Of a stretch of DNA of 32,000 bases, positions 11,397 to 27,280 are shown one piece after another (the stretch's first letter is position 1; the number at the start of each line of letters is the position of its first letter). Location of the stretch: assembly GCA_033854095.1 (NCBI GenBank), contig JAWOKW010000020.1, positions 2,166-34,165 of the forward strand, in the 5' to 3' direction. Both the position numbers and the translations under genes were made by a program. The notes beneath the pieces were generated by a model, which was given only the letters and a program-made list of their open reading frames with translations, made no database searches and was not told the DNA's origin. Source of the stretch: Candidatus Methanoperedens sp. (GTDB taxonomy: Archaea; Halobacteriota; Methanosarcinia; Methanosarcinales; Methanoperedenaceae).

Positions 11397-12641
11397 TTAA
11401 ATCCCGGTCTTGAATCTCAGGATTGCCCCGATTCCGCCGAACGCATTGAGCAGCTGGCTGCCTTCTTCAAAATCACTTGATATGAAAACTATGTTAGTAC
11501 CCATCTGGTCTGCAATGGTAGAGAGTTCATCCACGATATCTATCGATTCCTGAATACCAAGACCTGCTCCGCACTTTGTACAATTCCCTGGCTGGTATTC
11601 CTCACCAGGTTTCTTCATGATGGTTTTCTTTTCCTCAAAGCCGCAATTGCTGCATTTTATTGTGAGGCGCAGCTTTCGAAGTTCATCCGAAAGCAGAAGC
11701 GTGTCAACAGAACCCATCTGCAGGTTCTTCCTGACCTGTTCTTCCCCATATGACGCAAGACCTGTATCGCTCACAAGTTCTTTCAGGAAGCGTTCCATGT
11801 ATTTTTTCTCCTGCACCACCTCTACGTTTTGCAGGGCATCTCCAAGTTTATCAAAAAGTTCGTATAGACCTGACTCATCGGTATACGCCACATCAAAAAG
11901 CCCAAGAACTTTTTTCTGTATTTCATGATGAAGATATCCCCCGCTTTCGAATTCTTCTTTCGTGGGCGATGGGCCGCCTATGAAAATGCCTTCAAGGTCG
12001 TTTGGGTCAACAGCAAGGAAAACCTCACTTGCAGCATCCCCTATGCGTGTATAGAATTCATTGATCGCGATGAGGCGAAGCTGCTGGAACCTGTGCGAAC
12101 TCTGACCTCCTTTTCTCTGCTTCCCAGGGACTGTAGATGTGAGATGTGTAGCCTCTTCTATATGCTTCCCGCGCAATAGACCGATTGTGGCTTCGCGCCT
12201 GTCAAGGACTATGAGACCATAGGTCTTTTTCTCATGAAGCATATCCTCAAGCGGTGTGAGAAGAAACGACGAATCGCAGTGGTATTTATAGGATGTTATA
12301 GGTTCAGGCGGTTCTATGATGTATGTCTGCATCTCTGTCTTGTTAGCACCTATGTCCACTGCACCGCAAAAAATCACAACACCGTTTTCTGGTGCGCGTG
12401 ATATAAGTTTAAGTCTTGAAAGCAGTGACTCGATCGCGCTTGTCACGTTCTGCCGTGTCACTCTTGATTTGATGTTTGAGGCTTGACCAAATTCTTCCCT
12501 GAGCTGGGATGCTACTTCATGTATCTGTTTATCATGCGGGATATATAGTGAAATGAGTTCAGTGCCTCTGCCGTGTTTATCACGCAGGGCTTCAAGTGTT
12601 CTTTTGAATTCGTATTTTTTATGAGCTGCTGATTCTACCAT
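11397..12641 (-). CDS. prf1: peptide chain release factor aRF1
   Basis: The NIKS motif (ASNIKSRVT), the GGQ motif (KGGQSSHRF) and a C-terminal zinc ribbon CSNCG...CTKCG are present. I prefer ATG 12641, preceded by GGAGGAT with a 9-nt spacer, over the track's TTG at 12659. Confidence 0.95.
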   Translation of the reverse strand: MVESAAHKKYEFKRTLEALRDKHGRGTELISLYIPHDKQIHEVASQLREEFGQASNIKSRVTRQNVTSAIESLLSRLKLISRAPENGVVIFCGAVDIGANKTEMQTYIIEPPEPITSYKYHCDSSFLLTPLEDMLHEKKTYGLIVLDRREATIGLLRGKHIEEATHLTSTVPGKQRKGGQSSHRFQQLRLIAINEFYTRIGDAASEVFLAVDPNDLEGIFIGGPSPTKEEFESGGYLHHEIQKKVLGLFDVAYTDESGLYELFDKLGDALQNVEVVQEKKYMERFLKELVSDTGLASYGEEQVRKNLQMGSVDTLLLSDELRKLRLTIKCSNCGFEEKKTIMKKPGEEYQPGNCTKCGAGLGIQESIDIVDELSTIADQMGTNIVFISSDFEEGSQLLNAFGGIGAILRFKTGI

Positions 12642-20009: not shown

Positions 20010-20032
20010 GTTACCTTTTAGAGATAGGTAGC
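20010..20032. promoter_or_regulatory. imperfect inverted repeat GTTACCT-N9-AGGTAGC upstream of RHH/V4R paralog 1
   Basis: gttacct (20010-20016) and aggtagc (20026-20032) match at 6 of 7 positions. The repeat lies about 88 nt upstream of ATG 20120. Its half-site resembles the palindrome at 24249-24267. Confidence 0.25.
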
Positions 20033-20119
20033 TTTTTGTAAAAACAATAAAAGTCAATGTATTGCATAAAAACGGGTAAGGCGGGACATATTTGGAATTT
20101 AAACCCAGGATCGGAAAAT

Positions 20120-21571
20120 ATGATTGTTACAAGACATATCTCCCTTGACAGCGACTGTGTTGAGAAGATGAAACCATACGTGGAAAAGCATAAAGGCAAT
20201 TTCAGCGCTGCAATAAGGGAGATAATAGACCAGGCAGGGAAATCCAGTTATCCATCCAATTCATCTGTGATCGACAGTACATTGTTCAAATGGATGCTGG
20301 ATGAAATAGACGGCATACTCATCCCTGACAACATACTGGATGAAATAATCGATCCAGCCCTGATAAACTCGATGGAAAAACTTGAAGAATATCTTAACAT
20401 ACGCTTTGGTGAGCTTGAATGGGATATCAATATTGTTCTAAAATATGATAATAATCTCTCGCCAGCGGATATATTGATAGAAATAAGCGGCAGTCCTCAA
20501 AAAGCAAAATTCGCCGCCTGTCTGCTTTCCCAGTTCCTTGTGAAAAATTCACTTGAATGCAACCCGCTTGAGGTCAGGTCTGTTGTTAATTTTAATAACG
20601 GTGTAAAGGTCGAAATTTCAAGATCAACGAAAAAAGAAGCGCAGAGCAGCATATTCACCTTTTTTGGGGAAATGGATAAAGCCATAAGAGCTATAAAAAC
20701 ACAGCCAGTTTTCTGGAAAGCATTAGTGGATAGACATGTCCTGAGCAATTATAACATGGTCACCATCCACAGGAATTATTTCGAGGATTTACTGGCAGGC
20801 AAAGTTCCGCTGGGAGAGATAACGATAGAAAATATTGCAAAAAAACCAATTCAGGAAATTCCACTTAAAGAGATGCTTTCCCTGGTAAAAGAGGTCTATG
20901 AGACATCCAAGGTCTCAGATAGAGTCGAGCTCAACAGGGATTCGATAATATTCTTCCATAACTATAGAAATAAAGAAGCAATAGAAAAATTGATGGAGAG
21001 CCTTATCTCGCTCTTAGAAGCTAACGGTCATTTATATGATGCAAAATCAACTGCGAACATGATAGTCCTGACTCACAGACCTGATGTGGGTATAAAAATA
21101 AACGAAATAGTAGATAATCTAAAAATCAGTAACAGCAGGCTTGACCAGGAATTAATCATGTTTATGACATTCGTTAAAAATCTGAAGAACATGCCTGATA
21201 TAACTTCATCCCTGACATCACTGGGCACAAGGATAGGCAGGTCATTAATGCAGGAGTACGAAAAAGAGAATGAAATAAAGAACTGGGATATACATACTTT
21301 CCAGAAGGCTTTTGAAATAATCGATTCCAAACTTCACAGGGAAAGCGAATGGAAGTTGGACGGAACAAATCTGCTGTACACAATCAAAAAATGCAATATA
21401 ACCGCAGAAGGCACTGCGTTTGATACGCATATCTGCCATACAGCAAGGGAAGCATTCAAAGGTGCTTTGAGCTACGCATTTGGGAACAGAGCGCGGCTGG
21501 AAATTAATAAATTATTAACTCACGGGGACAATCTTTGTGAGGTGGTTATACGAATACCTCCTGTGAGTTAG
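20120..21571 (+). CDS. RHH-like N-terminus + V4R-like C-terminal domain protein (putative ligand-sensing regulator), paralog 1
   Basis: 483 aa counted from ATG 20120; this start was chosen by alignment with the paralog. The N-terminus MIVTRHISLDSDCVEKMKPYVEKHKGNFSAAIREIIDQA has the beta-strand, helix, helix pattern of CopG/RHH proteins. The C-terminus LGTRIGRSLMQEY...KKCNITAEGTAFDTHICHTAREAFKGALSYAFGNRARLE...HGDNLCEVVIRI fits the V4R (4-vinyl reductase) small-molecule-binding pattern. Confidence 0.7.
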   Translation: MIVTRHISLDSDCVEKMKPYVEKHKGNFSAAIREIIDQAGKSSYPSNSSVIDSTLFKWMLDEIDGILIPDNILDEIIDPALINSMEKLEEYLNIRFGELEWDINIVLKYDNNLSPADILIEISGSPQKAKFAACLLSQFLVKNSLECNPLEVRSVVNFNNGVKVEISRSTKKEAQSSIFTFFGEMDKAIRAIKTQPVFWKALVDRHVLSNYNMVTIHRNYFEDLLAGKVPLGEITIENIAKKPIQEIPLKEMLSLVKEVYETSKVSDRVELNRDSIIFFHNYRNKEAIEKLMESLISLLEANGHLYDAKSTANMIVLTHRPDVGIKINEIVDNLKISNSRLDQELIMFMTFVKNLKNMPDITSSLTSLGTRIGRSLMQEYEKENEIKNWDIHTFQKAFEIIDSKLHRESEWKLDGTNLLYTIKKCNITAEGTAFDTHICHTAREAFKGALSYAFGNRARLEINKLLTHGDNLCEVVIRIPPVS

Positions 21572-21591
21572 GTACGTATTAAAAGGAGTGA

Positions 21592-21930
21592 TTGGATATG
21601 GATAAATTGAAAAGTAAGGAATCGGATAAATATGGAGTAAATAAAAGAGATAGATTTGGGGTTGACAAATGGATAAAGGGCGGAGTTCTGTCTTTAATCG
21701 CCGGGCTCTTTATGTCGTTTGCTATAGGCATGGTGTTCCTTATCCCGATAGCGGTCGGCACATTTCTGGTCTATGGGCTGGTCGTCTACTTGAGGGGACG
21801 GAAGAACAGAATCACAGTGTCCATAAAGCCATCAGCGGCGATGGAAGCAATTGCTCGCAGGGAAGAGGAACTCAATAGGGAGAAAGAGAGACTGCTGTAC
21901 GAAGAATCCAGAAATGAGATAAAACATTGA
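21592..21930 (+). CDS. small membrane protein (2 TM helices + charged coiled-coil tail)
   Basis: 112 aa, with GGAGTGA upstream and lying 20 nt after paralog 1. The TM segments are VLSLIAGLFMSFAIGMVFLI and IAVGTFLVYGLVVYL. The C-terminus is ARREEELNREKERLLYEE. Confidence 0.6.
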   Translation: MDMDKLKSKESDKYGVNKRDRFGVDKWIKGGVLSLIAGLFMSFAIGMVFLIPIAVGTFLVYGLVVYLRGRKNRITVSIKPSAAMEAIARREEELNREKERLLYEESRNEIKH

Positions 21931-21957
21931 ATTCCACTATGGTTGAGGGTATAAGAG

Positions 21958-22830
21958 ATGCAGTTTAATAAGTTAATGGTTCTGATTTTTATTTTATTTA
22001 TGGCTGGCATTATATCTGGTATTGCATCAGGGCAGAACGTGGATGTATCATGTTTCCATTGTCATTCAACACAGGTAAATGAGCTAAAAAAGAGCGTACA
22101 CTTCAATCAGAATATCTCATGTGCAGACTGTCATGGCGGAGAAATACACATCAACGGAACTGCTGTATCTGTAGATGTAATGAGTGAGAACTTTACAGGA
22201 GTACCTACAAGAGCGAACATATCAAACGTATGCTCAAAGTGTCATAGTGAAGCAGCACGTTTATACAGGGAAAGTATACATTTTAAAGAACTTGAGAAGG
22301 GAATAACAATAGCAGCCACATGCACGGATTGCCACGGTGCCCATAGTATCCTGTCATCCAGTGACCCTGGCTCTATGACCTATTCAGGTAATGTTCCGCA
22401 GTTGTGTGCAAGCTGTCATGAAAACCAGACAAAGATGAGTGCATGGTACTATGGGATCAAGACAGACAGATTTGACACATATAAACAATCGTATCATTAC
22501 AAAGCGCTTTTGTCAGGTGGGAAAGGGCTTGCAACATGCCCTGACTGCCATGAGAGCCATGATACAAAAAATGAAAGCGACCCAACATCTGCCATATACC
22601 AAGCAAATCTGCCAGCAACATGCGGGAAAGCAAGTTGTCATCCAGGTCAGAGCGCCCTAATCTATGGCGGGCAAATCCATGAAGGGCAATCAGTTACTTT
22701 CTTCTCTATTGATGCAAAGAAGCTTGTGACTTATTTCTACATAGTAATGATACTTTTTGAGATCACGTTCACGCTCGGGCTCATTTCTGTTGATATCACT
22801 TCGAAGTTCGAGATAAGAAGGAGGGAGTAA
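21958..22830 (+). CDS. heptaheme c-type cytochrome, membrane-anchored (N-terminal signal/TM and C-terminal TM)
   Basis: There are six CxxCH motifs (CFHCH, CADCH, CSKCH, CTDCH, CASCH, CPDCH) and one Cx4CH (CGKASCH, nt 22621-22641). Exactly seven further His residues are available as distal ligands. A C-terminal hydrophobic helix (LVTYFYIVMILFEITFTLGLISV) is present, along with several N-x-S/T sequons. Confidence 0.9.
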   Translation: MQFNKLMVLIFILFMAGIISGIASGQNVDVSCFHCHSTQVNELKKSVHFNQNISCADCHGGEIHINGTAVSVDVMSENFTGVPTRANISNVCSKCHSEAARLYRESIHFKELEKGITIAATCTDCHGAHSILSSSDPGSMTYSGNVPQLCASCHENQTKMSAWYYGIKTDRFDTYKQSYHYKALLSGGKGLATCPDCHESHDTKNESDPTSAIYQANLPATCGKASCHPGQSALIYGGQIHEGQSVTFFSIDAKKLVTYFYIVMILFEITFTLGLISVDITSKFEIRRRE

Positions 22831-22831
22831 A

Positions 22832-23662
22832 ATGGCTGAATTAACATTCAAGAGGTTCACGCTTAATCAGCGTATCGAGCACATAATATTTTTTGCGACA
22901 TTTATCTTGCTTGCATACACAGGTTTTCCTCTGAAATTTCCGGATGAATGGTGGTCAAGATGGATGATCGCATCAGTGGGAGGCTTTGATAACAGGACAT
23001 TTATACATCACACATCTGGTCTGCTGATGATTGGAGTAAGCATTTACCATGTGGTTTATCATGTGGCTTTAGAAAAACCTCGCTTTGATATATTATTTAA
23101 CCCGAAGGACCTTCAAGATTTTAGTAAGCAGCTGCGGTATTTCTTGCGGTATTCAGATGAGCGTCCAAGATTTGGGAGATACACATGGAAGCAGAAGTTC
23201 GAATATTTCGGAGCAGGGTTCGGGGCTGTTATCATGGGTTTCACAGGAATACTGATGTGGAATCCCTTTGAAGCCATGAAATACTTTCCGATAGGGTTTA
23301 TCCAGATAGCTAACCTGTTCCACACATGGGAAGCAGTCCTTGCATCCCTTGCTGTGTTTGTAGGGCATTTCTATGACGAACATTTTGTAAGATTTCCGAA
23401 TCTGTCATGGTTAACAGGTAATATTTCAGAAGAAGAAATGCGCCATGAACATTCTATCGAATATGAGGAGGTGATGAAGAACACTGTAACCGAGAACAAT
23501 CTGACGGCTGAACATATAAAGAGCGACAGCAGCGCAGGCAGCATAATGTTACTCGGATTTGTAAGGTTAGTGTTCACAGTGGTTTTCTTAGCTATATTCA
23601 TCTGGATGATATGGATATCTTATAAAGTGCTGGTAGAGGCGGTCAGTACATATGTAATCTAA
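22832..23662 (+). CDS. b-type cytochrome membrane subunit (FdnI/HydC, Ni/Fe-hydrogenase cytochrome b family-like)
   Basis: The N-terminus RFTLNQRIEHIIFFATFILLAYTGFPLKF is the family hallmark. Conserved His residues lie in the TM helices (IHHTSGLL...YHVVYHV, FVGHFYDEHF). There are five predicted TM segments. The ATG lies 1 nt after the cytochrome c stop, and AGGAGGG lies upstream. Confidence 0.8.
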   Translation: MAELTFKRFTLNQRIEHIIFFATFILLAYTGFPLKFPDEWWSRWMIASVGGFDNRTFIHHTSGLLMIGVSIYHVVYHVALEKPRFDILFNPKDLQDFSKQLRYFLRYSDERPRFGRYTWKQKFEYFGAGFGAVIMGFTGILMWNPFEAMKYFPIGFIQIANLFHTWEAVLASLAVFVGHFYDEHFVRFPNLSWLTGNISEEEMRHEHSIEYEEVMKNTVTENNLTAEHIKSDSSAGSIMLLGFVRLVFTVVFLAIFIWMIWISYKVLVEAVSTYVI

Positions 23663-23673
23663 TGCTGAGAGTG

Positions 23674-24186
23674 TCAAAATCGAGACCACTTCGGACCGAA
23701 TTTATCCACAAGACTTCCTATCTCGATCAGTACCAGCGCCAAAACTATGTATATGAATGCGATATCACTTGGCGCTGATACGCTCCCACCAGCCATAGCA
23801 GTGAGGTTAGCATTCATTGCCATCACCCCTCCAATAGAGAGCGCGATCAGAAAGCCATTTATAGTCCAGTACACTCTCTCGTCAGACCTCAACTGGATAA
23901 TATAAACTACAAACAACATTGCAAGGGTCATCCATATCTTTACTGCTATCACGCCCATGAAACCCTGCGCCATAAAGGAGTAGCTCGCTATTGGATTGGC
24001 TTCAATGCCAGGTCCGCGTGCATCCATCATATACGCAGCAGTAACTGCATCACCTATACCAAAGATAAGAAATGCTATAAGATAAAGAACATGCTGCAAA
24101 TTTAGTCTCTTTACTGCGAAAATCGCTAGCAGCTTTGCAATCTCTATGAGTTCATATACAAACCCCTTCTGGATATTTTCTGTCAT
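23674..24186 (-). CDS. DUF5658-like integral membrane protein
   Basis: 170 aa with 4-5 TM segments. The motif GIGDAVTAAY...GIEANPIA resembles the D-x-x-T...E-x-N-P signature of DUF5658 (from memory). Confidence 0.6.
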   Translation of the reverse strand: MTENIQKGFVYELIEIAKLLAIFAVKRLNLQHVLYLIAFLIFGIGDAVTAAYMMDARGPGIEANPIASYSFMAQGFMGVIAVKIWMTLAMLFVVYIIQLRSDERVYWTINGFLIALSIGGVMAMNANLTAMAGGSVSAPSDIAFIYIVLALVLIEIGSLVDKFGPKWSRF

Positions 24187-24248
24187 ATTCTTCCCCTGAA
24201 GAAACTACTCTTCAAACAACTATTAGCTGCATAACTGAATATCGCTAG

Positions 24249-24267
24249 TTGCTACTAATAGTAGCAA
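24249..24267. promoter_or_regulatory. perfect 19-bp palindrome TTGCTACTA-A-TAGTAGCAA in a divergent promoter region (candidate operator)
   Basis: ttgctactaatagtagcaa has 9-bp perfect arms around one central base. It lies between the DUF5658 gene (minus strand) and paralog 2 (plus strand), immediately upstream of an A/T-rich TATA-like stretch at 24277-24286. Confidence 0.4.
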
Positions 24268-24355
24268 GACTGAAAGTTATTTAAATCAAGAAACCAAAAA
24301 TATAATATAATCAGACAATAATTACAATAAATAATCATGATAGATGTGGGGTTAC

Positions 24356-25852
24356 ATGATTCTTAGAAAAAATATCTCTCTAAATGAGGAGTATCTACAG
24401 AAACTTGAGCCATTGATAGAAAAGCACAACGGCAATCTCAGTGCTGTCATACGTGAAGTGATTGACCTTGCAGATGCTGCATTTCAGGATCCTGATTCTG
24501 TGAAAAGGCTTATCTCAGGATTGAAAAAAGAGCAGAGCTTAACATCTCTTGCTCTTGCATGGGCGTTAAGGAACCTTGCTGGCAGAATCCCTGATGAGGA
24601 AATCGTTCACAACATTGTTGGCAACAATATCTATTCTATTTCTGCTCTTGAAGAGCGCTTGAATGAACTTGCAGGAGAAATCTACTGGGGCTCATCCACT
24701 AAAATCATTTCTGATGACGACAGACAGCCTAAGAATGTAACGTGCACTATAACAGGGAAGAATCCAGATATGAATAGATTTTTGGGTGCTGTTATTGCTA
24801 TATTTGCAGCGAAAAAATACGCTCTTGGTATATATAGTCTGAGAAGTGTAAATGACACTTTTGAAATAATAATGAAAAGCAGTGAAGATGGTATAAAAAG
24901 CATAGAAGAAAATTTCGGATATATGGATCCTGCTTTTCGCGAATTATACAAAAAACCTGATTTCTGGAACATCATAATACCTCTTCATGCAAAGATGAAT
25001 TATAATATGGTGACCATATCAAGACAGCTATTTGATGAAGTTTTAGGGGGCATGGCAAATCCTAAAATTTCAGCATGTTTTGAAAATTTTTTTGGTTGTC
25101 CCATACATAATATTACGTTAGAGGAGTTCTTAAAAAAAATGCAGGTTCTTTATAAGTCTATGGGTTTAATTGAAGATATGAACATCAATAAAGACTCTCT
25201 GATAATACACCATGGGCTCAACAATCCTGATGCTATCAAAAAATTGGCTGATATGTTTGTAGAATTATTAAATTTGAGTGGTCAGACATACACTTCCACG
25301 GTCGGTGAAAACCTTATCGTACTGAAACCCCTGCCAGCAGTGGGCAAAATACTTATAAAAATAATAGAGGATTTTAAACCAGTCGAAGAGCCTATTGAGA
25401 ACCATCATAAAGATATCATTAGAATGCTTGACATGCTTAAAAACGTGCCTTCAAATGAAGAATTCATAAAATCTCTTGGCAGGAAATTTGGAAAAAGGAT
25501 GATACAGACTTATGAAAAAGATAAAAAGATAGATAAGTGGGATGCACAGAGCTTTATCAAATGTATGCAGGACATGAGTGTGATTTTCAATCAGGAATCT
25601 AAATGGGAAATTGTCAGCGAAAATGTCATTTATGGCAAAATCAGCACCTGTCCATTGATAAAAGGTGAAGAAAAAATCAACTCCATGAACTGTACATTTA
25701 TAAAGGGGATATTCGATGAATGGATATCGCATGTGTTCGGCGAACAGGTAGAACGGGTTCATGCAATGCCAACAGCCTTTGACTTTTGCGAGGCTTATGT
25801 TGCATTTGACAGGATAAACAGAAATTGGCAGGATAAAAAGTTAGCCCCTTAA
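24356..25852 (+). CDS. RHH-like N-terminus + V4R-like C-terminal domain protein (putative ligand-sensing regulator), paralog 2
   Basis: 498 aa from ATG 24356. The N-terminus MILRKNISLNEEYLQKLEPLIEKHNGNLSAVIREVIDLA matches paralog 1 at 20 of its first 39 residues. Shared blocks are NYNMVTI, I/LNxDSxIxxH, LKNxP...LGxxxGxxxxQxYEK...W and ESxWxx. The Cys triad C-x13-C-x31-C compares with C-x13-C-x33-C in paralog 1. Confidence 0.7.
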   Translation: MILRKNISLNEEYLQKLEPLIEKHNGNLSAVIREVIDLADAAFQDPDSVKRLISGLKKEQSLTSLALAWALRNLAGRIPDEEIVHNIVGNNIYSISALEERLNELAGEIYWGSSTKIISDDDRQPKNVTCTITGKNPDMNRFLGAVIAIFAAKKYALGIYSLRSVNDTFEIIMKSSEDGIKSIEENFGYMDPAFRELYKKPDFWNIIIPLHAKMNYNMVTISRQLFDEVLGGMANPKISACFENFFGCPIHNITLEEFLKKMQVLYKSMGLIEDMNINKDSLIIHHGLNNPDAIKKLADMFVELLNLSGQTYTSTVGENLIVLKPLPAVGKILIKIIEDFKPVEEPIENHHKDIIRMLDMLKNVPSNEEFIKSLGRKFGKRMIQTYEKDKKIDKWDAQSFIKCMQDMSVIFNQESKWEIVSENVIYGKISTCPLIKGEEKINSMNCTFIKGIFDEWISHVFGEQVERVHAMPTAFDFCEAYVAFDRINRNWQDKKLAP

Positions 25853-27280
25853 CCTGGTTTTTCTATAGTTCCTTATTTCCTCAAGTACCCTTTTATCGAT
25901 TGTTCCTGGCTCTGTCATCGATCTGGCATCAAGTATTTCGTTCAGGTATCTCTGGGGAATGATATCCTTTTCAATCAGTACTTGCTTCAGGGATTTATTC
26001 TCAGAAAGCGCGATCTTTACGATATCTGCCACATTCTCGTACCCGATATAAGGATTAAGCACTGTCGCCAGACACTGGCTGTTTTCAAGAAGCCATGCGC
26101 AGCGTGTCGCATCAACCCGAATGCCTGATACGCATTTCTCACGCAGCATCCTGATAGTGTTTGTTAAAAGTTCTATGCCCCACAATAAATCAAAGGCTAT
26201 AAGCGGTGTCATCACGTTGAGTTCAAGCTGTCCTGCTTCTGCTGCAAGGGTTACTGCATGGTCGTTGCCTATGACCTGAAAACATACCATGTTCACAGCT
26301 TCAGGAATGGATGGATTGATTTTTCCTGGCATTATCGAAGAGCCAGGCTCCACTTCAGGCAGGACTATCTCAGAAATCCCGGCTTTTGGACCTGAGTTCA
26401 GAAGACGCAGGTCATTTGAGACCTTGTTGAGTTCAACAGCCAGTATCCTTATGGAATTGGAGAGCTCAACAAAACCTGTCATACTCCATGAGAGCATCAC
26501 GCTGTTGCCTGGATAAAACTCAAAACCTGTCAATTCCCTCAATTCAGAAAGTATAGTCTTTTTAAAATTCGGGTGGGTATTGATACCTGTCCCAACCGCT
26601 GTGCCGCCTATGCTCAGTTCAAGCATGCTTTTTTCTGCATTTTGAATTCTTTCAATACATTTTTCTAAGGCTGATGCGTATCCTTCAAAAACCTGACCAT
26701 ATCTTACAGGCACTGCATCTTCAAGATGAGTCCGTCCCACCTTGATTACACTCTCGTATTCCTTTGCTTTGTCACGAAATGCGCCAGTTATTTCTTTAAG
26801 TTCCCTGAAAAGAGGAGGCAGTGTTAAAAGCACGCTCAACCTGATTGCAGTAGGAATTACATCATTGGATGACTGCGCCATATTGACGTGGTTATTTGGA
26901 TGAACGATATGGTAGTCGCCAGGCTTTCCTCCCAGTTTTTTAATCGCAGCATTGGCAATGACCTCATTGGTGTTCATATTGAACGGTGTGCCTGCGCCTG
27001 CCTGAAATACGTCGAGTATGAATTCATCCCTGTATTTTCCTGCGATGACCTCGTCAGATGCCTGTACTATCGCATTTCCAATTTTTTTATCAAGCATGCC
27101 AAGTTTCATGTTCGTCAGAGCTGCTGCTTTTTTTATGATGACTATAGAGGTTATGAACTCAGGCTTTGCTTTTATGCCGCTGATCTTGAAATTATTAAAA
27201 GCGCGTGTTGTGAACGCACCGTAGAGTACGTTGTCAGGAACCTCTATCTCGCCAAGGCTGTCTTTTTCGATTCTACCCAT
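25841..27280 (-). CDS. aspartate ammonia-lyase / class II fumarate hydratase family lyase
   Basis: The signature GSSIMPGKINP and the motif SQSSNDV are present, with the N-terminus RIEKDSLGEIEVPDNVLYGAFTTRAFNNFKIS. The QAGAGT block looks aspartase-like while QSSND looks fumarase-like, so substrate specificity is unresolved. The 3' end overlaps paralog 2 by 12 bp (convergent). Confidence 0.9.
   Translation of the reverse strand: MGRIEKDSLGEIEVPDNVLYGAFTTRAFNNFKISGIKAKPEFITSIVIIKKAAALTNMKLGMLDKKIGNAIVQASDEVIAGKYRDEFILDVFQAGAGTPFNMNTNEVIANAAIKKLGGKPGDYHIVHPNNHVNMAQSSNDVIPTAIRLSVLLTLPPLFRELKEITGAFRDKAKEYESVIKVGRTHLEDAVPVRYGQVFEGYASALEKCIERIQNAEKSMLELSIGGTAVGTGINTHPNFKKTILSELRELTGFEFYPGNSVMLSWSMTGFVELSNSIRILAVELNKVSNDLRLLNSGPKAGISEIVLPEVEPGSSIMPGKINPSIPEAVNMVCFQVIGNDHAVTLAAEAGQLELNVMTPLIAFDLLWGIELLTNTIRMLREKCVSGIRVDATRCAWLLENSQCLATVLNPYIGYENVADIVKIALSENKSLKQVLIEKDIIPQRYLNEILDARSMTEPGTIDKRVLEEIRNYRKTRLRG

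Follow-up and report, generated by a model that had tools for sequence, protein, structure and literature searches.

A probable archaeal sensor-regulator family linked to multihaem cytochrome operons in Candidatus Methanoperedens

Methanogens provide a precedent for transcription factors that combine a DNA-binding domain with a Cys-bearing V4R domain and regulate their own genes: MsvR, a V4R-domain regulator of Methanothermobacter and Methanosarcina, uses a motif lying 5' of its gene for autoregulation and is responsive to redox state (PMC3729527). Here we analyse two paralogous genes, paralogue 1 and paralogue 2, that flank a membrane cytochrome module in a 32,000-nt stretch of a Candidatus Methanoperedens genome (contig JAWOKW010000020.1, positions 2,166 to 34,165 of the forward strand; hereafter the window), and compare their products with MsvR and other described regulators. 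Both encode members of an archaeal family, so far uncharacterised, whose proteins are probably DNA-binding sensor-regulators. At a probability of about 60%, we read this family as one-component regulators built from a ribbon-helix-helix (RHH) domain, a core corresponding to Pfam entry PF27313 and an exchangeable input domain, with paralogue 1 controlling cytochrome operons and paralogue 2 acting as a separate regulator. The family core is already known and the regulatory principle is not new; what is new is the architecture and its dedicated link to electron-export operons. We computed homology, domain composition, statistics of gene context and the enrichment of motifs; that the proteins bind DNA, in which direction they regulate and what signal they perceive are inferred.

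Each of the closest described systems shares some features with the window proteins and differs in others. MsvR carries a helix-turn-helix (HTH) domain, is about 250 aa long, is without the 290-aa core, has a C-x25-C-x7-C cluster and acts on oxidative-stress genes rather than cytochromes. Its operator, TTCG-N7-9-CGAA, is not found upstream of either paralogue and occurs in the window only at 11675, at chance level; as the two proteins also match no HTH family, we rejected their membership in MsvR. The closest relatives of their C-terminal domain in sequence are proteins with the Msr-like architecture of Methanosarcina, in which an ArsR-type HTH is joined to V4R/MetOD1 domains and which share Cys positions with the family. 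These V4R/MetOD1 proteins nevertheless carry an ArsR-type HTH or a REC domain, lack the PF27313 (AF_0136_C) core and have four cysteines where the family has three. NikR likewise follows an N-terminal RHH with an alpha/beta ligand-binding and oligomerisation domain, but it is a nickel sensor of about 135 aa without V4R, and its similarity to the core is not significant. XylR, DmpR and MopR have a V4R and XylR_N sensor of the same fold class, with a Cys cluster in the equivalent place, but they are bacterial sigma-54 enhancer-binding proteins that contain AAA+ and Fis-type HTH domains and bind phenolics. MopR has the canonical V4R Cys triad, which matches Cys 2–4 of the four-Cys set described below, and in MopR and PoxR the Cys cluster supplies zinc ligands. 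The archaeal protein AmzR (MA2561), of about 500 aa, has PAS and GAF domains and N-terminal basic zipper-like helices (bioRxiv 10.1101/2025.05.05.652248); the window proteins have no PAS or GAF match in Pfam, and their membership in this family was ruled out. By analogy, the two paralogues would work like MsvR/Msr- or NikR-type one-component regulators while standing outside those families.

Domain make-up of the paralogue family

The two proteins align over their full length (BLASTP, 28% identity, 49% positives, E = 1e-63) and are identical at 20 of their first 39 residues. As a preliminary description made from the sequence alone had stated, both contain the blocks NYNMVTI, LKNxP..LG..G....Q.YEK...W and ESxW, and their cysteines are spaced C-x13-C-x33-C in paralogue 1 and C-x13-C-x31-C in paralogue 2. 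Precomputed matches assign the exact window proteins (P0001 and P0121) and all of their homologues to PF27313.1, which is named AF_0136_C after an Archaeoglobus fulgidus protein. The PF27313 model is not in our local Pfam copy, and family membership is taken from these precomputed matches; against local Pfam and NCBIfam neither paralogue reaches a curated threshold, NCBIfam returning no match at all. A profile search of 1.84 billion representative proteins (E ≤ 1e-3) recovered a family of 166 clusters at 50% identity, in which named homologues are nearly all from Candidatus Methanoperedens. A few of them are labelled 'predicted hydrocarbon binding protein (contains V4R domain)' (JGI/NCBI) and the remainder 'hypothetical'. 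Searching from an alignment of short forms again returned mainly long forms from Methanoperedens and widened the known taxonomic range little.

Conservation in the family is highest at the N-terminus, which, judged by its sequence, is probably an RHH domain. Residues 1–45 of paralogue 1 follow the pattern strand (IVTRHISL), helix, G-N-x-S turn, helix, with helices predicted at 11–23 and 28–41 in structure models. N27 and I36 are the sole residues invariant family-wide, and the G26-N27-x-S29 turn is invariant or nearly so. Alignment of a family profile of the first 46 residues with CopG, NikR, ParD, Arc and Mnt (hhalign) placed 40 columns in register at 88.5% probability (E = 2.7e-6). Among Pfam families, RHH_1 is matched by the most members (4 of 22, best E = 0.006, all under threshold), and P0340, a protein reached by the family profile, exceeds the RHH_1 cut-off. 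Together these matches support the CopG/RHH-type N-terminus that had been suggested from the sequence pattern. In sequence searches of the PDB, the whole-family profile returned only noise, and a match of the N-terminal profile to a designed TPR protein was discarded as spurious (short repeats). The strand residues predicted from the CopG alignment to face the bases are T4, H6 and S8 in the paralogue-1 clade, and R4, N6 and S8 in the paralogue-2 clade and the short forms, a difference that would fit different operators.

Behind the RHH lies the core, about 290 aa long (residues ~50–340), in which a helical linker leads to two beta-beta-alpha-beta-beta-alpha modules (~100–340) parted by helices. 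An AlphaFold model of RHH plus core, built from a diverse alignment, has pLDDT 87 and pTM 0.68. Foldseek found no PDB match to this model at E ≤ 1e-3; the best weak fold matches are LAGLIDADG I-DmoI, ACT domains and designed ferredoxin-like proteins (ACT/ferredoxin-like, E ~0.04). The majority of family clusters are short forms of ~345 aa that end at the core. In P0248 and P0257 (alignment A3, columns ~400–539), which are annotated 'response regulator' and come from metagenome-assembled genomes of Methanosarcinales and Methanofastidiosia, a CheY-like REC receiver replaces the V4R-like domain. Such a combination of a constant RHH and core with differing input domains is the hallmark of transcription-factor families. 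MetOD5, a 300-aa domain, occurs as MetOD5–REC in Methanoregula (Galperin et al. 2018, PMC5847659), and by size and domain order, as opposed to sequence comparison, the family core may be the MetOD5 of such MetOD5–REC regulators.

The long forms end in a V4R/MetOD1-like domain of ~140 aa (residues ~340–480), which in paralogue 1 contains C425, C439 and C473. The whole-protein model has pLDDT 73, with moderate values (~55–87) in the C-terminal part, and Foldseek against the PDB returned Bet3/TRAPPC3 (E = 1.3e-4), H-NOX (E = 6e-4) and MopR (5kbg, E = 0.016), with TM(target) of 0.44–0.57. The family profile also reaches P0348, P0357 and P0358 (E = 1.6e-5 to 1.2e-4, positions ~360–488). P0348 is a stand-alone MetOD1 protein, above the MetOD1 cut-off and with a weak V4R match, and the other two are ArsR-HTH proteins with V4R/MetOD1/ATC-hydrolase-like domains. 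As modelled, the C-terminal domain belongs to the HNOX-like/V4R fold class, in line with its earlier assignment as V4R.

A domain-length alignment identifies the family cysteines as Cys 1, 2 and 4 of the C-x13-C-x25-C-x7-C set of P0357 and P0358; the third is missing, and the canonical C-x25-C-x7-C cluster of MsvR and MopR is thus absent from the family. MetOD1, which is related to HNOB, V4R and ATC hydrolase, has three conserved cysteines (PMC5847659). Because the MsvR triad (C206, C232 and C240; PMC3729527) corresponds to Cys 2–4 and the family has Cys 1, 2 and 4, its triad is a variant of the standard V4R/MetOD1 cluster, and not the special addition to the domain for which it had been taken. 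In the paralogue-1 clade a conserved His lies close to the cluster (T/S-H-G-D).

These residues bear on a variant of the proposed regulator in which the Cys cluster would be a thiol/disulfide redox switch and not a structural metal site beside a ligand pocket. Its model would be MsvR, in which a V4R domain with three conserved cysteines goes with redox-dependent DNA binding (PMC3729527), and C425 and C439 are indeed invariant, or nearly so, in the long forms, whose associated genes are respiratory. However, the family lacks the third cysteine of the canonical cluster and keeps an extra upstream one, C473 is replaced by Ser in P0177 and the equivalent MopR/PoxR cluster binds zinc structurally (cited in PMC5847659). 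We give a redox switch a low probability, the observations made here favouring neither role over the other. The earlier suggestion that the signal is haem, quinone or redox status is pure speculation.

Cytochrome operons and candidate operators

A scan of species-representative genomes yielded 65 loci, all from Methanoperedenaceae or unclassified relatives, and a hidden Markov model search of their open reading frames (ORFs) identified 122 family genes, often two to four in succession on the same strand. A multihaem cytochrome gene lies directly 3' of 51 of the 113 full-length paralogue-1-clade genes that have downstream sequence. Conversely, all 53 multihaem genes in these loci (at least four CxxCH motifs) lie <3 kb from a family gene, and none of the 386 genes farther away is of this kind. 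The gap between family gene and cytochrome gene is short, and at two loci, L044 and L057, it gives way to a 4-nt overlap between the apparent ORFs. The association of paralogue 1 with cytochromes that had been noticed in the window is therefore strongly conserved.

The same modules recur in a larger arrangement. The first half of a recurrent supercluster reads family gene, cytochrome c (6+1 haem), cytochrome b, family gene and a gene for a small protein with two transmembrane segments (2-TM); the second half reads family gene, cytochrome c (7 haem), NrfC-like iron–sulfur (FeS) protein and NrfD-like membrane protein. Three or four family paralogues are interleaved in superclusters of this type at L057 (1248–14493), L040 (10001–21440), L052, L035, L004, L005 and L061. 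Leu et al. (2020) described menaquinone:cytochrome c oxidoreductase clusters composed of cytochrome b with a multihaem cytochrome or of NrfD with an FeS protein and a multihaem cytochrome (PMC7327174). Both module types match these clusters, and by sequence the cytochromes c and b of the window form a putative menaquinol:cytochrome c oxidoreductase. Leu et al. do not use the word 'regulator', and in Arshad et al. (2015), who also treat these clusters, it appears only in general remarks and references; the literature searched describes no regulator of Methanoperedens multihaem cytochrome genes.

The 2-TM gene is a frequent companion of the family. It lies directly 3' of 33 of the 113 paralogue-1-clade genes, another family gene comes after most such 2-TM genes, and 2-TM homologues are found directly 5' of at least 25 other family genes. 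The companion is ~100–130 aa long (for example, L057 9690–9980 and L040 17330–17620), and its gene commonly stands between two family genes, the second of which precedes a cytochrome gene. It might serve the regulators as a membrane partner or belong to the complex as a subunit.

One family, Methanoperedenaceae, supplies all of these loci, so shared ancestry inflates the counts, and the adjacency to cytochromes might on that account be chance or mere synteny among close relatives, without function. We regard this as highly improbable, given that two unrelated module types (cytochrome b and NrfCD) each have their own family paralogue, and that the linkage persists in rearranged clusters from 38 assemblies at 58–73% protein identity.

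Operon-first genes of the paralogue-1 clade are preceded by two to four tandem copies of GGGnAAAACGGG, 8–11 nt apart and mostly 35–80 nt 5' of the start codon, which sit just 3' of an A/T-rich TATA-like stretch; a stretch comparable to that of the window (Table 1) lies 5' of the repeats in orthologous loci too. AAACGGG occurs at 3.4 per kb in the 120 nt 5' of 103 family genes, against a background of 0.069 per kb (2.05 Mb, both strands), an enrichment of ~49-fold. The strict form AAAACGG-N1-6-AAAACGG has 12 sites in the same 2.05 Mb on both strands, 12 of 12 of them <200 nt upstream of family genes. Within the 32-kb window AAACGGG occurs once, at the paralogue-1 site (20066–20087), where a perfect unit, AAAAACGGG (20068–20076), is followed 9 nt on by a degenerate unit, AAGGCGGG (to 20085). 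Beyond the window, repeat-bearing loci include L046, L050, L063, L042 and L021. Where a family gene lies 3' of a 2-TM gene, the DNA before it is coding and provides no separate promoter. RHH proteins such as MetJ and omega typically have short tandem direct repeats as operators, and the AAAACGG tandem repeats are candidate operators of the RHH family proteins. In the paralogue-1 clade, a specific repeated motif of the kind expected of autoregulation is found at the gene's own putative promoter, where the protein would bind. A different element had been put forward upstream of paralogue 1, an inverted repeat at 20010–20032; its 7-nt arms contain one mismatch and it is not reported by the repeat finder. 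We set it aside as weak, nothing similar being seen on inspection by eye upstream of the L041 orthologue, which has the same arrangement.

The paralogue-1 clade has multiplied in Methanoperedenaceae, its genes standing first in, or inside, menaquinol:cytochrome c oxidoreductase operons whose modules consist of a heptahaem cytochrome c with either cytochrome b, as in the window, or NrfC-like and NrfD-like proteins. In the mechanism we propose, RHH dimers or higher oligomers would bind the tandem GGGnAAAACGGG repeats between the TATA-like element and the start codon of the first gene, and this binding would control transcription both of the regulator itself and of the downstream cytochrome genes. 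A signal perceived by the V4R-like domain, be it a ligand that is small and hydrophobic or resembles a tetrapyrrole, or else the condition of the Cys cluster, would alter DNA affinity. Paralogue 2 would be a separate regulator, tied to a divergent DUF5658 gene and to PAS/MASE3 histidine kinase and REC genes.

A broader proposal, which we advance tentatively and would not yet expect to hold, is that the family forms a lineage-specific regulatory layer for extracellular electron transfer. Each module would have its own RHH–core–V4R sensor, sometimes two with a 2-TM partner; these sensors would share the AAAACGG operator and answer to different signals (haem, menaquinone redox state and acceptor-related ligands), together setting which electron-export branch the cell expresses when the acceptor is nitrate, iron, manganese or an electrode. 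Were such a dedicated layer to exist, the ~290-aa core would be a new signal-relay and oligomerisation fold. The choice of electron acceptor by methane oxidisers of the Methanoperedens group is poorly understood. The present analysis offers concrete candidates, namely a predicted DNA-binding protein within cytochrome operons, a predicted operator and a putative ligand-binding domain, and makes the question testable without a pure culture. It also adds a predicted archaeal regulator design, an RHH and a new core with exchangeable V4R or REC input, which bears on the long-noted scarcity of recognisable signal-responsive transcription factors in archaea.

Several observations weigh against a regulatory role. 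At the N-terminus, neither paralogue passes the RHH_1 gathering threshold of 20.5 bits (paralogue 2 scores 12.4 with E = 0.16, and paralogue 1 has no match), the RHH reference sequences used in hhalign were entered by hand, and the sole PDB match of the N-terminal profile in the correct register is to NikR, at E = 1.1. Residues 1–10 are unstructured in both monomer models, in which the RHH strand is unformed. At the C-terminus, Pfam V4R (PF02830) matches neither window protein and only 2 of 22 members, the better at E = 0.031, short of the threshold. Of 103 family genes only 35 have the candidate operator upstream; many, but not all, of the genes without it have coding sequence immediately 5', and the window site itself pairs one perfect with one degenerate unit. 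The scan patterns were derived from the paralogue-1 clade, which biases the sample towards that clade and leaves paralogue-2-type and short-form loci beyond retrieval. Nor did we find any paper on the PF27313 family or any experimental characterisation of it. To that extent the earlier statement that no regulator family of this design had been described still stands, but it went too far in that the core has a Pfam entry, members are labelled V4R and regulators that combine DNA-binding and V4R domains are known (MsvR, PMC3729527). Finally, several paralogous 'regulators' in one supercluster, each with its respiratory module, are unusual for regulators and would suit an accessory subunit.

This last point leads to the main rival explanation, that family members are cytoplasmic accessory proteins for haem or quinone handling, assembly or gating, with the H-NOX/V4R-like domain holding the cofactor. 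Such a role would fit the roughly equal numbers of family genes and modules, which are oriented alike, the very short gaps and overlapping ORFs, and a fold able to bind haem or lipids. It does not fit the conservation of the family, which is greatest in the RHH, nor the specific repeat motif that marks upstream regions, nor the relatives that carry REC domains or neighbour two-component genes. The cytochrome c faces outward, whereas neither a transmembrane segment nor a signal peptide is evident on reading the family sequences, which were not put through a signal-peptide predictor. Members of the paralogue-1 clade also stand beside unrelated genes, as expected of an expanded regulator family: at L043 (11496–15595), L054 (11440–12651), L039 (10083–11792) and L007 (11835–12338) they are followed by non-respiratory genes that resemble, by eye, shikimate dehydrogenase (aroE), Fe-S/radical-SAM and FAD amine-oxidase genes, or that encode a 167-aa protein of undefined type. 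We therefore consider an accessory role unlikely and favour one-component regulators.

A third long-form clade is represented by P0360 from a 'Methanobacteriota archaeon', which shares ~41–44% identity with paralogue 1 across residues 1–340. At its locus (L076/L077 4188–7473) the family gene sits upstream of mch and is divergent from a gene for a stand-alone V4R protein, behind which come HdrC/HdrB/HdrA-like and FlpD genes; this neighbourhood ties the family to further energy-metabolism genes.

The paralogue-2 clade

The preliminary description held that the two paralogues form a paired system that jointly tunes the cytochrome c/b module between them. In the window they do flank the module and have the same architecture, and elsewhere several family paralogues share one supercluster with cytochrome modules. 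Those cytochrome-clustered paralogues, however, are all of the paralogue-1 clade: every full-length family gene in the scanned loci (109 of 109) groups with paralogue 1, and paralogue 2 stands apart, partly owing to the paralogue-1 scan patterns. We looked up six paralogue-2 orthologues one by one (51–68% identity; loci L069–L073 and L078), and none of the six adjoins a cytochrome b/c module. Five instead lie alongside PAS/MASE3 histidine kinase and REC-PAS genes, and four of these five also have a divergent DUF5658 gene, recognised by Pfam in L070, L072 and L073 and, as a probable case, by position and size in L069. The sixth, on a 5-kb contig, has a KaiC-like ATPase gene as its sole identifiable neighbour.

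Four of the orthologous loci keep DUF5658 without the cytochrome module, and DUF5658 therefore pairs with paralogue 2 and not with the cytochromes. The predicted base contacts of the two clades differ as well (T4/H6 against R4/N6), as do their upstream motifs, which are direct repeats in one case and a palindrome in the other. Because none of the six paralogue-2 orthologues adjoins the cytochrome b/c module, the bracketing pair is not a conserved system: the position of paralogue 2 beside the cytochrome cluster is particular to the present genome, and the bracket is a local accident. Joint tuning by the pair is accordingly very unlikely, and we retain paralogue 2 as a separate regulator.

The inverted repeat that had been reported between DUF5658 and paralogue 2 is a perfect palindrome with arms of 9 and 9 nt and one base between them. 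A related TTGCYAC-N5-(G)TTAGCAA lies upstream of the paralogue-2 orthologues of L069 and L073, which brings this palindrome type to three of six loci including the window; no TTGCYAC-type palindrome was found within 260 nt upstream of the orthologues of L070–L072. Neighbours in this clade also include divergent REC genes, GAF histidine kinases and KaiB, and KaiC-like ATPases are frequent. In L069, a 1192-aa multihaem protein with a dockerin domain is encoded nearby on the opposite strand. The kinase genes found 3' of paralogue-2 orthologues elsewhere are absent 3' of paralogue 2 in the window.

Gene calls and other features of the locus

All six genes at 20120–25852 are present among the window ORFs as first described, with gaps of 20, 27 and 1 nt on the plus strand, and ORFs together with Pfam and NCBIfam matches agree with the earlier naming of the four middle genes as encoding a 2-TM protein, a heptahaem cytochrome c, an FdnI/HydC-type cytochrome b and a DUF5658-like protein (Table 1). 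The cytochrome c has Pfam matches to NapC/NirT-type, cytochrome c7/c3 and other multihaem families. The cytochrome b matches Ni_hydr_CYTB (E = 3e-15) and the FdnI-type TIGR01583 (E = 3e-17, under the TIGR01583 cut-off), and the DUF5658 match scores slightly under the Pfam cut-off. The 2-TM protein matches no Pfam family, and an Rfam scan of the window gave no match.

Table 1. Coordinates of features in the window
Feature	Position	Strand	Basis and remarks
A/T-rich TATA-like stretch GCTTTTTGTAAAAACAATAAAAG	20031–20053	+	Read from the sequence as the putative paralogue-1 operon promoter; 5' of the repeat motif
Candidate operator, AAAACGG-type units	20066–20087	+	33–54 nt 5' of the true paralogue-1 start codon
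Paralogue 1, 483 aa	20120–21571 (mechanical ORF from 20057)	+	PF27313, BLASTP, models, alignments
Small 2-TM protein, 112 aa, charged C-terminal helix	21592–21930	+	ORF reading
Heptahaem cytochrome c, 290 aa, 6 CxxCH + 1 CxxxxCH, C-terminal membrane anchor	21958–22830	+	Motifs, Pfam
Membrane cytochrome b, Ni_hydr_CYTB / FdnI type	22832–23662	+	Pfam, NCBIfam
DUF5658-like membrane protein	23674–24186	-	Pfam E = 9e-5; convergent to the cytochromes, divergent from paralogue 2
Perfect palindrome TTGCTACTA-A-TAGTAGCAA	24249–24267		DUF5658/paralogue-2 intergenic region; candidate operator
Paralogue 2, 498 aa	24356–25852 (mechanical ORF from 24344)	+	PF27313, BLASTP, alignments

The mechanical ORFs overshoot the true genes by 21 codons (20057–20119) in paralogue 1 and by 4 codons (24344–24355) in paralogue 2. 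The starts at 20120 and 24356 are correct because homologues, several hundred of which support the shorter starts, are ~480–490 aa long and open with MIVT(R/K)HISL or MILRKNISL. The public records P0001 (504 aa) and P0121 (502 aa) use the longer starts, and the paralogue-1 version engulfs the candidate operator. Over 12 nt (25841–25852) paralogue 2 overlaps, 3' end to 3' end, with a convergent gene at 25841–27280, whose 479-aa product, judged from its sequence, resembles a class II fumarase/aspartase-type lyase.

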